A stretch of 64,000 nt of DNA from a virus, in IMG/VR virus record IMGVR_UViG_3300006175_000009, positions 1 through 64,000 of that record; one strand, 5' to 3'. A model generated the notes under the pieces. The model did not search any database. It was not told where the DNA came from and saw only the letters and a list, made by a program, of their open reading frames with translations. Within the stretch, counting starts at the first letter, position 1; every line of letters starts with the position of its first letter. A program made the translations under genes and the position numbers. Positions 3,339 through 57,399 of the stretch are shown here, one piece after another.

Positions 3339-3829
3339 TAGTAACCGTAGCCCTTCAGATCGTTGCGACGAACGAAGTGCAGTCCCAAGCACTCGCTGTC
3401 CTTGCAGTGGCCTCCATGGCCGAAGCTGACCCAGTCTCGCAGGGCCTTGTTCGGCGGCATGTAGTCGAGATTCTTGTACAGGGACTTGTGGACGGACGCC
3501 TGTACACCGTAGAAGGGGATTCCCGCCCTACGGCACAGGTGCCTCATCACACCGATCAGCTCTGCGGTACCGAACGTCGATCCAGTTTGCTGAGTCGCCT
3601 TGTTGTGGTACAACATGAAGATCTCATAGACGATCAGTTCGACCTCGCCAGAACTCATCCGAGGGATGAGCCAGTCTACCCACTCTTCCGGAGTGAACTC
3701 CCGCGCCCACTGAGGCTCTCGGCCCAGCCAGTAGGTCACACCGACATGGCGGTCTCCGGGGTCAACAGAAACCCAGTGACCCTCTGGAATCGGTGGGGTC
3801 TCGATCTTGGGCTTCTTGTAGACGACCAT
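3338..3829 (-). CDS. RuvC-like Holliday junction resolvase
   Basis: SVDPG N-terminal acidic motif, IVYE, late H..D motif. Confidence 0.7.
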   Translation of the reverse strand: MVVYKKPKIETPPIPEGHWVSVDPGDRHVGVTYWLGREPQWAREFTPEEWVDWLIPRMSSGEVELIVYEIFMLYHNKATQQTGSTFGTAELIGVMRHLCRRAGIPFYGVQASVHKSLYKNLDYMPPNKALRDWVSFGHGGHCKDSECLGLHFVRRNDLKGYGY

Positions 3830-11689: not shown

Positions 11690-11746
11690 TGGGTTCCTCA
11701 GGAGTCGAACCTGAGCGCTTACCTTAGTTGCCCAGTCTCGGAACCC
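11690..11746 (-). ncRNA. tRNA minihelix-like module
   Basis: Perfect GGGTTCC/GGAACCC-A acceptor and TCAGG-TTCGACT-CCTGA T-arm joined by only 25 nt. Confidence 0.6.
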
Positions 11747-11748
11747 AA

Positions 11749-11970
11749 CTCCGCGTCAACGCTCGGCAAAGCGGAGCGGAGAAGACCAAGCGGTTCCTTG
11801 ACTGGGAGGAGGTCACCCCCATGCCCAGGGGCAGGTAAGCCTTCCTCGAACCCATGGTCGGGCAACCCCGTGGAGAACCCGACACCAACAGCTTAGAACC
11901 TAGGTCGGACAAGTCCTTCCCTGGGATGGGCCTTAGCCCCCTGCGACGGACTCCCGGTCCCTTGCTGCTG
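11749..11970 (-). ncRNA. Ms1-like structured RNA (~220 nt)
   Basis: No credible ORF; directly downstream of a strong promoter; ordered blocks GGCTAAGGCCC, GAAGG, CCGACC, CCACGGGG, CGCTTGGT resemble recalled Ms1/MTS2823 blocks; 3' hairpin CTCCGC..GCGGAG. Confidence 0.5.
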
Positions 11971-11975
11971 AAGCA

Positions 11976-12005
11976 AGTCTATCAAGACCGTGGGGTCTGG
12001 GTCAA
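11976..12005 (-). promoter_or_regulatory. promoter of RNA operon 1
   Basis: TTGACC-N18-TAGACT. Confidence 0.75.
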
Positions 12006-18007: not shown

Positions 18008-18128
18008 CTCGTATGTCCTTTCGCGTGTCCTTGCGAGACACAGTTAAGCACATACGTAGGAGTCCAGTCAAGTGTGCTCTTTGGGCAAAAAGAAGGCCCT
18101 CCCAGGACGAGGATACCAGGAGGGCCGG

Positions 18129-18203
18129 TCGCTCAGGTTGGTCTCGAACCAACGCATCTCCCCGTTATGAGCGGGGTGCCTTAACCAGCTTGGCCACTGA
18201 GCG
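18129..18203 (-). tRNA. tRNA-Met(CAT) (elongator-type; Ile2 not excluded)
   Basis: Canonical cloverleaf CGCTCAG/CTGAGCG, anticodon loop CT-CAT-AA. Confidence 0.85.
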
Positions 18204-18208
18204 AAGAG

Positions 18209-18287
18209 AGCGAACAGACGGAGTCGAACCGTGATCCACCTGGGTTGCAGCCAGGCCCCAGTTGCCCACTGAGTTAGGACTATCCGC
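18209..18287 (-). tRNA. tRNA-Cys(GCA), 8/4 acceptor/T-stem fold
   Basis: GCGGATAG/CTGTTCGC-U73, anticodon arm CCTGG-CTGCAAC-CCAGG, T-stem ACGG/CCGT. Confidence 0.65.
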
Positions 18288-18333
18288 AGAGCTGGGGAAG
18301 GCGGCTCGCCAGCCGTGCGTCCCTTACCCCAAC

Positions 18334-18413
18334 GTGGAGAATCTGGGAGTCGAACCCAGCTCCTGGAGCTTCCCTCGTGGGGCTTTGACTCCAGTCGAAA
18401 CCAACTATTCCCC
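18334..18413 (-). ncRNA. mini-tmRNA: tRNA-like domain only, no tag ORF
   Basis: GGGGAAT-AGTTGG-TTTCGAC start, G3.U70/A73 acceptor, short P2 CTGGAG/CTCCAG, GA-G-CTGGG-TTCGACT-CCCAG. Confidence 0.75.
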
Positions 18414-18472
18414 ATACCAGACACCTCTCGGGAAATCTCAAGGAGGTGGGCTTTTACTGTCTGATTGCCGCG

Positions 18473-18545
18473 AGCCCCCGACAGGATTCGAACCTGCGTC
18501 ACCGACTTACAAGGACGGTGCTAAACCAGCCTCAGCTACAGGGGC
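18473..18545 (-). tRNA. tRNA-Thr(TGT)
   Basis: Canonical cloverleaf, loop CT-TGT-AA. Confidence 0.85.
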
Positions 18546-18678
18546 AGCATGCCAGTTTGTTTTGTCAAGCGAAGCTGACACTCTCCGCCTTGGAAGACAC
18601 GACCTGACCTACACCCGCGTTAGCGGTTAACAGGTAGTAATTGTAGCCGCAGATCATTACGACTTCATAGCGTGCCCG

Positions 18679-18746
18679 TGGACCCACGGAGAATCGAACT
18701 CCGCTGGAGTGCCTTGCAAAGGCTCCCTGTCACCTTGACCAGGCCC
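18679..18746 (-). tRNA. tRNA-Ala(TGC) with shortened D-arm
   Basis: G3.U70, A73, loop TT-TGC-AA, D hairpin GTCA-AGG-TGAC. Confidence 0.65.
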
Positions 18747-18818
18747 AAAAAGCATCATAACCGGAACAGCTTGTCCACCGGTAGTGCCTCCCCATGAATC
18801 GAGGTCTTTGATGCTACG

Positions 18819-18901
18819 TACCGAAGGTGGGACTCGAACCCACAATCCCGAAGGCACTAGTTCCTAAGACTAGCGTGTATATCCAGTTCCACCACTCCGG
18901 C
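18819..18901 (-). tRNA. tRNA-Leu(TAG)
   Basis: Canonical class II cloverleaf, CTAGT-CTTAGGA-ACTAG, variable arm. Confidence 0.9.
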
Positions 18902-18917
18902 ATGTTCAGTTGTTGCG

Positions 18918-19012
18918 TGATCCGAGCAGGAATCGAACCTGCGTTACCCAGCCATCCTAAGCCTCAAGCCTAGGCATCAATCCGGGCGGCTTTCCATTTA
19001 GCCTATCAGACC
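18918..19012 (-). tRNA. tRNA-like RNA with extended anticodon arm
   Basis: Normal acceptor, D and T arms; anticodon stem CCCGG/CTGGG encloses an extra hairpin CCTAGGC-TTGAG-GCTTAGG. Confidence 0.6.
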
Positions 19013-19015
19013 AAG

Positions 19016-19084
19016 GGAGACGCAGACGCGGGGGGAGGATCTACGTCTCCACTAGAACCAGGTGGGGGGGCCCTGTGTTCGTGG
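19016..19084 (-). ncRNA. 6C RNA-like
   Basis: Two adjacent hairpins with loops GCCCCCCCA and TCCTCCCCCCGCG, starting at the predicted TSS. Confidence 0.75.
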
Positions 19085-30733: not shown

Positions 30734-31299
30734 TACTGCCCCAGGAGGTTGAACGTGGCCTGAAGGATCAGGGTGTTCGGGTTGGTGACGGTCACGGTCG
30801 GGGTGAAGACCCAGTGGTCCAGGAGGATGCCAGCGGTCTGCACGTTGGCGTTGCTGGAAGTGCCATTGGCGAAGACTCCCGCCTCACCTACCGTGTAGCT
30901 TGTGGCTGGAGTTGGGAAGTAGAACGTCCAAGTGGCCTGAGAAGCGATCGTAGGGGTGGCTGGAGCGCTTGAACCGGCCCCTACGGTCACTCGTGCCAGT
31001 TCGGCCCCCAGAAGGACGTCAGCGGCCGTTGCAGCCGTTGTGGACGACCCGATAGCCCCCCAGAGCGGGGTCAGGTAGTACGAGGTGGTGACGCCCAGGT
31101 TCGCGGCCTGGTCCTGGATGCCGGAGTACACCAGCGCGTTGGCAATGGCTGTCATGCCTGCCGTACACATGGTGTTCTTGCCATGTCGCTCGTCCACGAC
31201 ATTTCCGTCAGGATCAACGACGTAGACGGACAGGCGTCCCTCGAAACCGATGAAGGCGTCTAGCCCCACGTCACCATTCCCCACTGTCCCATGTCCCAC
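30733..31299 (-). CDS. minor tail / fibre-attachment protein
   Basis: N..C.AG, AIG....A..AD..L..E..R, EAGVF motifs. Confidence 0.6.
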   Translation of the reverse strand: MGHGTVGNGDVGLDAFIGFEGRLSVYVVDPDGNVVDERHGKNTMCTAGMTAIANALVYSGIQDQAANLGVTTSYYLTPLWGAIGSSTTAATAADVLLGAELARVTVGAGSSAPATPTIASQATWTFYFPTPATSYTVGEAGVFANGTSSNANVQTAGILLDHWVFTPTVTVTNPNTLILQATFNLLGQ

Positions 31300-55944: not shown

Positions 55945-57399
55945 TTACGCAGCGCTCTCGAACACGTGCGGGTCGCCACACTTCGGGCAGCGAAGCGGGT
56001 TGGTCTTGAGTACGAAGGGCCTGTCACAGCCCCCACAGCGCACTACCCCATAGGCGGACGACCAAGACCCTCCAGATAGACCTGTTAGGCCCGTGATGGC
56101 CCACACAAGGGCGTCCAGACGGTCAGGAGACTTGCCGCTGACTCCGGGAATCCAGTCGCACATCTCGTCTTCGAGCTGAGTGAGCATGCCAATGTGGTGG
56201 ATGCGCTTCTGCTCATACAGCGACGCCACTGGCTCAGCACGGATTTCCTTACCGCGCGAGGCTCGAACAGTCTTGAACGGAACATGTGGATCGACGTGTC
56301 GAAGCACGGACCCGATGTAGTCACCACCGTTGTTGACCTCAGCCACCACCGAGTCAGCATGGAACTCGTGGTAAGCCTTGACGGCTTCCCGCATTGCAGC
56401 TTCCGGAGAAGCCTTCACTGAGCGGTCTGCAAGCACATACCCATGACCACGATCATCGGAAGCAACAACGACAATGCCAGTGAGGTCAGAGCTTTCGTCA
56501 CTAGTGACAGCAGGGTCCACAGCAACCACCACCTGGACGAGATCCTCAGGAACCTCATCGCGGGTGATTCGTGCATCGTCAATATCGACACGCTTGAAAA
56601 GCGCGCCCTCAATGTCCTCAAGAAGGACACCGTACAACTCCTGCTGACCTAGTCGTGTTCCGTCGTATCGACGCTTTAGTTCGTCCAGCGCAACCGCTGA
56701 AAGGTGCTCGCGATTGTCGAATGAGGAACCGCGAGTCAGGTGGACCGTGCCGTCACGTCGGCTGTACAGATCCTTGACGAGTGGGGTTGGTCGTGGGGTG
56801 GTGGTCACCACGATCCGGGGGTGGTCGCCCTTACGTACGGCGGGGACGATTCCCTCATACCAGATCTCGGGGCGACGCCAGGAACCGATCTCGTCGGCCC
56901 AGACACCCCAGAGATTCAGACCACGCGCGCGCTCAGGTTCGTCAGCCGAGATGCCGTGAATCTTGGAGCCGTTGGTCAGCTTGATCTGAAGCTCATTGCG
57001 GAGATACTGCTGCATCTCCCCTTCGTTGAACCGCTTCAGAATTCCGGAGTCACCTTCGAAACAGGTTCGCTGGACGTCACGGAATGTCGGAGCAACTACG
57101 AGCCATTCCGAGTTTGGGATGGAGAGAGCCTGGTGAACAATCCACGACGCCCCAACAAACGTCTTTCCGAATCCACGCCCAGCAAGCAGTAGCCAGATGT
57201 TCCACGAATCGTCGGGAACTCCGTCGCAGGAGGGGCAGGCGTGTCGTTCGTCGTCTGGTGGGAACTGGGCAGCACGGGCTGTGGCTGAGTACTCACGGTC
57301 AGTGAACTCAGGAGCGCTAAGAGCATCCAGTTCATCCCGAAGGCGCTTCAGCTCTTCTAGCTGAGCTAGCTTGGCCTTCAGCAGGGGTGACTGTGACAT
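55945..57399 (-). CDS. terminase large subunit
   Basis: AGRGFGKT, WADE, VVTTTP, QELYG, VAVDPA, EVNNGG, SPDRLDALVWA. Confidence 0.95.
   Translation of the reverse strand: MSQSPLLKAKLAQLEELKRLRDELDALSAPEFTDREYSATARAAQFPPDDERHACPSCDGVPDDSWNIWLLLAGRGFGKTFVGASWIVHQALSIPNSEWLVVAPTFRDVQRTCFEGDSGILKRFNEGEMQQYLRNELQIKLTNGSKIHGISADEPERARGLNLWGVWADEIGSWRRPEIWYEGIVPAVRKGDHPRIVVTTTPRPTPLVKDLYSRRDGTVHLTRGSSFDNREHLSAVALDELKRRYDGTRLGQQELYGVLLEDIEGALFKRVDIDDARITRDEVPEDLVQVVVAVDPAVTSDESSDLTGIVVVASDDRGHGYVLADRSVKASPEAAMREAVKAYHEFHADSVVAEVNNGGDYIGSVLRHVDPHVPFKTVRASRGKEIRAEPVASLYEQKRIHHIGMLTQLEDEMCDWIPGVSGKSPDRLDALVWAITGLTGLSGGSWSSAYGVVRCGGCDRPFVLKTNPLRCPKCGDPHVFESAA

Follow-up and report, generated by a model that had tools for sequence, protein, structure and literature searches.

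The locus described here raises the question of whether a phage encodes its own version of 6C, and of what such an RNA might do. In Mycobacterium, the C-rich loops of 6C pair, unaided by any chaperone, with the G-rich ribosome-binding sites (RBSs) of dnaB and panD; the pairing with mRNAs has been proven both genetically and biochemically, no cofactor has been found, and overexpression of the RNA stops growth (PMC6486639). The 6C of Corynebacterium is an RNA of extreme stability with ties to the SOS response and to cell division (PMC5014011). Extra copies of 6C are found on mycobacterial chromosomes and plasmids (PMC9569102), and a search of the literature returned no report of a 6C-type RNA in a phage. 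The element that the initial annotation named a phage-encoded 6C RNA lies in a window of 64,000 nucleotides, the first 64 kb of a 78-kb IMG/VR record that is estimated to be 77% complete; the GC content of the window is ~60%.

Anatomy of a C-loop leader ahead of a phage tRNA array

The element stands on the minus strand, between the gene for a Cas4-like nuclease and an array of tRNAs and tRNA-like pieces (Table 1). The description of two adjacent stem-loops, one with a C7 loop and the other with a C6 loop and CCUCC, was borne out, on the minus strand, with CCUCC preceding the C6 run in the loop of the second hairpin. Its placement at the start of an RNA operon, directly before a tRNA-like module, was correct as well: an extended -10 element lies upstream, and the second hairpin is followed by CUUG and, 4 nt on, by the module. 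The tail of this hairpin reads CUUGGUCUG / CUUGGUCU and is free of a U tract. The promoter was identified by eye, as its 19-nt spacer caused a consensus scan to overlook it, and transcription is predicted to start near 19082, ~7 nt past the extended -10 element.

Table 1. Features of the leader locus in the window, with coordinates given on the 64,000-nt window
Feature	Position	Strand	Details
Cas4-like PD-(D/E)XK nuclease gene	20074-19127	-	Pfam PF12705, E = 9e-27
-35-like hexamer TTGACG	19119-19114	-	Read from sequence; 8 nt past the Cas4-like stop codon
Extended -10 element TGCTAAGCT (TGnTAnnnT)	19097-19089	-	Read from sequence
70-nt leader RNA (6C-like element), predicted start to base before tRNA-like module	19082-19013	-	
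Hairpin 1 (HP1)	19080-19055	-	8 bp, one bulge; GAAC(A)CAGG / GCCCCCCCA (loop) / CCUGGUUC; C7 at 19070-19064
Hairpin 2 (HP2)	19050-19016	-	12 bp; GGAGACGUAGAU / CCUCCCCCCGC (loop) / GUCUGCGUCUCC; C6 at 19035-19030
First tRNA-like module	19012-18917	-	Rfam tRNA 43.7 bits with 27-nt insertion; ARAGORN call
Rest of co-oriented array (tRNA-Leu, Thr, Met and tRNA-like pieces)	18127-18901	-	
U-tailed intrinsic terminator ending the RNA operon	18126-18087 or 18126-18095	-	11-bp stem, then UUCUUUUU

The leader folds into the two hairpins at -30 kcal/mol, and a stretch of 91 nt reaches -34 kcal/mol (z = -3.3), a stability that none of 200 shuffles attained. When the leader is folded together with the tRNA-like precursor, the probability of being unpaired is 0.98 for the C-run of HP1 and 0.99 for that of HP2. 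Such loops are rare in this genome. Runs of at least six C or six G are depleted about six-fold in the window, with 10 observed against the ~64 expected from base composition, and two of the six such runs on the minus strand sit 35 nt apart inside the leader (p ~0.02 by position alone). Among the 41 strong hairpins of the minus strand, only HP2 and a hairpin at 21566-21532 have a loop with a C-run, and the clear terminators of the phage combine ordinary loops with U tails. The hairpin at 21566-21532 (minus strand) has 13 bp and a C-rich loop, AACUCCCCC, that resembles the UAACCCCCCC loops of Hiyaa-type leaders described below; it directly follows a stop codon, and behind it come UU and then a TTGACA-N17-TACAGT promoter. 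Its appearance is that of a terminator that at the same time exposes a C-loop.

The leader is conserved over a short evolutionary distance. In a close relative, represented by a metagenome contig, 30 of 273 positions (~11%) differ in the adjacent nuclease coding sequence, and among the differences listed for this relative, which leave out up to six, none falls within 19013-19083, the nearest being at 18997, 19085 and 19088. A 3.8-kb contig from an RNA-library run (X17) also spans the region, although contigs cannot reveal transcription or transcript ends and stretches that they leave uncovered carry no information.

The first tRNA-like module of the array behind the leader consists of a tRNA body with an over-long anticodon arm, called tRNA-Ile (GAU) by ARAGORN, into which a hairpin of ~23-27 nt is inserted. 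A tmRNA-like element at 18332-18413 (minus strand) comprises the tRNA-like domain only: it scores 50.5 bits against the Rfam tmRNA model (gathering score 47) but has 16 nt where the model has 308, and it is devoid of a tag reading frame. Between the true tRNAs, further tRNA-shaped pieces at 18209-18288 and 18680-18785 (minus strand) stay below threshold, with 24.9 bits for tRNA-Sec, 23.2 for mascRNA and 29.9 for Actinomyces-1. In a ~92%-identical relative, represented by a contig of run X17, window positions 18748-18916, which hold tRNA-Leu, are swapped for an unlike stretch of 81 letters, and a further 45 nt, at 18289-18333, are passed over, which suggests that modules of the tRNA array are exchanged between close relatives. 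Two primase-helicases of the phage's own are encoded just downstream.

A leader family in Hiyaavirus-like actinophages

The nuclease of the window is 42% identical to the Cas4 exonucleases of Hiyaavirus, encoded by the Streptomyces phages Keanu, Spocter, Hiyaa and Galactica, and its gene served as the synteny anchor for the comparison of leaders. By Cas4, the closest relatives are P0002-P0010, at 60-64% identity, and the nearest relative compared at the leader is locus L070, at 60%. The window and the Hiyaavirus phages have in common the gene order nuclease, small ORF, tRNA and, later, primase-polymerase. Within it, the succession of Cas4-like gene, TGnTAnnnT, two hairpins and first tRNA recurs in the window, L001 (Hiyaa), L097 (Keanu), L002 (Galactica), L007, L008, L009, L011, L072, L003 and L004. 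In 10 related loci, the 260 nt ahead of the first tRNA contain exactly one TGnTAnnnT apiece, and all related loci have an equivalent of the window's -35 element, CTTGAC or CTTGCG. In these phages and their metagenomic relatives, the interval from TGnTAnnnT to the tRNA measures 53-89 nt and contains two neighbouring hairpins, the last of which stops 2-6 nt short of the tRNA, with the exception of L004, where an additional structure separates the first hairpin from the tRNA. Leaders are predicted to start 6-7 nt past TGnTAnnnT; in Hiyaa and Keanu, the predicted 5' end lies 6-7 nt past TGCTACGAT.

The window leader occupies the same position, after the Cas4-like gene, past TGnTAnnnT and just before the first tRNA, and has the same design of two adjacent hairpins, at least one of which carries a run of six or more C in its loop. 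By these traits it belongs to a family of leaders that Hiyaavirus-like actinophages, cultured Streptomyces phages among them, have in common, and we are confident that this family is real, conserved and structured. A hairpin loop with a run of six to ten C is found in 11 of 12 lineages, typically as UAACCCCCCC in the tRNA-adjacent hairpin. Both loops hold at least six C in the window, Hiyaa, Keanu and L011; L007 and L009 combine a C5 with a C7 loop, and several relatives have a C-loop in one hairpin only. An example of the twin form is found in Hiyaa (L001 5388-5474, corresponding to genome positions 31140-31226), to which Spocter is identical across the leader stretch, and in Keanu (L097 2602-2686), whose second loop contains ten C. 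In both phages, the leader sits between the small ORF that follows Cas4 and the tRNA (tRNA-Glu in Hiyaa, labelled tRNA-Leu(ctc) in the Keanu record), and it is unannotated in the GenBank records.

On the other hand, the leader is not universal among the relatives. L070 has the same promoter and, at 3649-3745, the same odd tRNA-like module, which is thus conserved, but its leader is only 19 nt long and forms a GAGA hairpin without C-loops. As the promoter and the tRNA-like module are kept there without them, the C-loop leader can evidently be lost or gained and is dispensable. In L072, an ordinary tRNA-Ile(GAU) is found at the position of the window's first tRNA-like module.

Covariance models gave a consistent picture of the family. 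A first model (R1), for which only Hiyaa, Keanu and Galactica were used, retrieved the leaders of L072, L007, L011, L009, L008 and L005 as the best matches in their loci, at 22-34 bits, and a search of the window with it did not match the leader. When the raw leaders were aligned with MAFFT and folded with RNAalifold, the arms fell out of register and no structure was returned, and a model-guided alignment was substituted. In the resulting alignment of eight sequences, 94% of the cells pair, and, in this alignment fitted to the model, 17 of 24 pairs have changed on both sides, including 12 of the 13 in the tRNA-proximal hairpin; none of 500 shuffles reached the observed covariation, and slid registers did not come close to it either. 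The full-length leader is found in one copy per genome and is absent from five unrelated actinophages (GiJojo, BillNye, Enygma, BRock and PermaG). IMG/VR scans with patterns for the element, the neighbouring tRNA-like module and the promoter returned only chance matches or already-known loci, and neither a single-protein locus search nor a search for the nuclease in bacterial genomes gave a match.

Resemblance to 6C and other small RNAs

The best Rfam family for the window leader is 6C (RF01066), which matches at 27.7 bits (E = 0.035) over model positions 1-75 in a scan of 151 nt with lax filters. The gathering score of this family is 47 bits; at gathering thresholds, the search returned four tRNAs and no 6C, and 6C was not reported in a 2-kb Rfam scan with E-values up to 10. 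The search with the Rfam 6C model that the initial annotation had proposed as a check thus yielded a sub-threshold match and none at the gathering score, and the name "6C RNA" stands for the architecture and the nearest family, not for membership (27.7 vs 47 bits). In five actinobacterial genomes, the real 6C genes score 90.6 bits (Mycobacterium), 76 bits (Rhodococcus) and ~48 bits (two Streptomyces and one Kitasatospora). These genomes, 37 Mb together, contain nine further 6C matches of 26-41 bits, a rate at which a match of at least 27 bits is expected ~0.015 times in 64 kb. By this measure, the window leader is similar to 6C beyond chance, yet scores below what defines a member of the family. 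Two more leaders, those of L011 (28.0 bits) and Keanu, likewise have 6C as their top family over the full length; the 28.3 bits of Keanu are the best score of any phage leader, against the gathering score of 47. In two Streptomyces genomes, a sub-threshold 6C-like match (33-37 bits) lies ~7 kb from dnaB, the best-studied target of 6C (G001, C2:552557 vs 560315; G002, C1:457965 vs 465801), which may be a coincidence.

The resemblance also holds in the opposite direction. A second covariance model (R2), built from phage leaders only and with the window left out, matched the window leader over its full length (model 1-85) at 20.9 bits (E = 0.11), as the second-best match in the window; the best, at 22.3 bits, is the hairpin at 21566-21532. 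Applied to the host 6C genes, R2 gave 37.8 bits for Kitasatospora, 34.6 for Rhodococcus, 33.5 for S. parvulus, 29.5 for S. tendae and 28.8 for Mycobacterium; each of these genes is the top match in its locus, and in the whole 9.4-Mb genome of Kitasatospora the 6C gene is the sole match. A weaker R2 match in Hiyaa, at 56675-56709, is a bidirectional terminator with its C-run in the stem and no C-loop. The likeness between leader and 6C appears reciprocal and consistent, and its basis is the loops together with the arrangement in two hairpins; as 6C is defined by little beyond two C-loop hairpins, similarity leaves descent and convergence inseparable. We conclude that the window leader is 6C-like rather than a demonstrated member of 6C.

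What the two RNAs have in common and what sets them apart can be listed in some detail. Like the window leader, 6C (named B11 in mycobacteria) consists of two hairpins side by side, each with at least six C in its loop; the second loop contains CCUCC-CCCC in both RNAs, and both are also 70-76 nt long and promoter-proximal. In contrast, the stems have no sequence similarity, and the window leader is phage-encoded, with a 3' end that abuts a tRNA-like module and no terminator, while host 6C is a free-standing chromosomal gene whose second hairpin ends the transcript. Mycobacterial 6C has, in addition, an extra 5' hairpin and U residues after the second hairpin, where the window leader has no U tract. 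No tRNA lies within 1.5 kb of the host 6C loci, in contrast to the tRNA-fused leader. A second RNA of this kind is Scr3202 (RF02833), a Streptomyces small RNA whose two hairpins likewise bear C-rich loops. Among Rfam families it matches the Hiyaa leader best, at 23.6 bits over the full length (gathering score 52), and gave no match to the window leader at E-values up to 10; unlike the phage leaders, it is chromosomal and has no tRNA nearby. The extra 6C copies of mycobacterial plasmids and chromosomes pass Rfam 6C annotation and are free-standing, with none reported as phage-borne or tRNA-fused, and they document the spread of 6C-type RNAs by mobile DNA (PMC9569102).

The suggestion that the same genome encodes an Ms1-like RNA as a neighbour of 6C found no support. 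Linkage of the 6C and Ms1 genes is known in mycobacteria only (PMC9569102), and the proposed Ms1-like region (11749-11970), which lies 7 kb from the leader, matched no relevant Rfam family in a 301-nt scan of 11700-12000 with E-values up to 10. A pairing of the leader with this candidate RNA was rejected: the G5 runs of 11700-12000 are, by prediction, already engaged in base pairs, and the duplexes do not stand out in energy.

Possible roles of the leader and their meaning

The leader is a genuine viral RNA element, probably with a regulatory role. That it is released by RNase P and acts in trans, like 6C, on G-rich mRNA sites has, in our estimate, a little less than an even chance. In such a scheme, transcription would begin ~7 nt past the extended -10 element, and RNase P would cut at 19012/19013, where the first tRNA-like module begins, to free a leader of ~70 nt. 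A hairpin 2 nt behind the 5' end and another 4 nt short of the 3' end would make the freed RNA stable, and its C-rich loops could pair through G-C stacks with exposed G-rich sites in host mRNAs, typically RBSs. The phage's own mRNAs would be less likely targets: its genes offer no complementary set of G-rich RBSs, a GGAGGGGG-type RBS being found at one start only (54500, minus strand). A role of the leader as a brake on phage RBSs was rejected, the sole exact complement of loop 2 lying within a coding sequence. Also discounted was a pairing of loop 2 of the window with the Streptomyces dnaB RBS GGGAGGAGG, which could comprise 7 bp but is a misfit for the pure C-runs of Hiyaa; this pairing was computed on Streptomyces.

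A more specific form of this scheme would make the leader a phage mimic of 6C that, made as the disposable 5' leader of the tRNA operon and cut free by host RNase P, occupies the G-rich RBSs normally under 6C control, among them those of dnaB and of division or secretion genes, and thereby halts host replication and division. This reading as a whole we consider rather unlikely. Speculatively, a shutdown of host replication may cost the phage nothing, since it replicates with its own two primase-helicases.

Production of a small RNA in this manner has parallels. Phage T4 encodes in its tRNA cluster two small stable RNAs, species 1 and 2 (rnaC and rnaD), that are processed out of the tRNA transcript. 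Like the proposed leader, they are non-tRNA small RNAs co-transcribed with a tRNA cluster, but they belong to an unrelated phage and host and do not have the C-loop design. Recruitment of RNase P or RNase Z by a tRNA shape is also known from MALAT1-mascRNA, from the tRNA-miRNA of gammaherpesvirus 68 and from small RNAs derived from bacterial tRNA spacers, where the tRNA-shaped element sets the end of the adjoining RNA; in the window phage, by comparison, it would be the 5' leader, cut off by RNase P, that has the function.

Alternatively, the leader may act in cis only, its hairpins protecting the 5' end of the tRNA precursor against 5'-dependent RNases or setting up its processing by RNase P, with the C-loops docking a processing or stabilising protein and the freed leader having no function of its own. 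The invariable fusion to the first tRNA, 2-6 nt away, and the very stable stems (-30 to -65 kcal/mol) would fit such a role, as would L070, which works without a C-loop leader as expected of an accessory stabiliser, and the failure to find a target for the loops. Generic protection, however, needs no kept loop, and it is the C-run that is retained while the stems vary between lineages at 40-50% Cas4 identity; moreover, the terminators and other strong hairpins of the window phage have ordinary loops. A purely cis-acting leader is, to us, a doubtful proposition. That the leader is instead a true homologue of 6C, descended from a host gene that an ancestral phage captured and that diverged past the Rfam threshold, we regard as quite improbable. 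It is consistent with 6C being the top Rfam match, at full length, of three divergent leaders, with the retrieval of host 6C by the reciprocal model R2, with the barely sufficient score (48 bits) of the real Streptomyces and Kitasatospora genes and with the horizontally acquired extra copies on mycobacterial plasmids (PMC9569102). The leader, on the other hand, falls 19 bits short of the gathering score, its stem sequences are unlike those of host 6C, the host genes lie far from tRNAs and end in their own hairpin, most relatives have a single C-rich loop, and the Hiyaa leader is slightly closer to Scr3202 (23.6 bits); the features in common are those expected from convergent selection for binding G.

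Rho prefers C-rich, unstructured RNA, and an abundant leader might, instead of pairing with mRNAs, be a decoy that titrates Rho or another poly(C)-binding protein, with the exposed C-runs as the sole feature in favour of this reading. We find it very unlikely, as the runs are 6-10 nt long and held in closed loops, far below the length of a rut site, and as 6C acts by base-pairing with mRNAs, with no cofactor found (PMC6486639). An intrinsic terminator or attenuator, which would end the nuclease transcript or stop transcription prematurely before the tRNAs, could be seen in the strong, GC-rich 12-bp stem of HP2, in the hairpin at 21566-21532, which has a similar C-loop and directly follows a stop codon, and in the U residues behind the second hairpin of mycobacterial 6C. 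It is nonetheless extremely unlikely: the promoter sits between the stop codon of the nuclease gene and the hairpins, HP2 is without the U tract that the clear terminators, including the operon's own, possess, and a constitutive stop at the leader would silence the entire tRNA array. As to a chance pair of hairpins without function, the E-values of the single searches (0.035 and 0.11) are modest, but the retention of the leader in close relatives despite 11% coding divergence, the homologous family with its covariation and the scarcity in the window of both C6 runs and hairpins with C-loops make this practically negligible.

In relation to what is known of 6C-type RNAs, the position as leader of a tRNA operon, with its implied maturation by RNase P, is new, as are the covariation at the level of a family, the reciprocal model match to real 6C and the presence of the leader family in cultured, tractable Streptomyces phages. 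6C is one of the few small RNAs widely conserved in Actinobacteria, and its overexpression stops growth via dnaB; a phage-borne look-alike would amount to a natural gain-of-function experiment on the 6C regulon. As the leader is found in cultured phages of Streptomyces lividans (Hiyaa, Spocter, Keanu and Galactica), the idea is open to immediate laboratory testing. Its being fused to a tRNA further suggests, for the leader, a way of producing small RNAs via RNase P that requires neither a chaperone nor a terminator and that could be general in tRNA-carrying phages. If true, the mimic would represent the viral takeover of a bacterial small-RNA regulon, coupled to tRNA processing.
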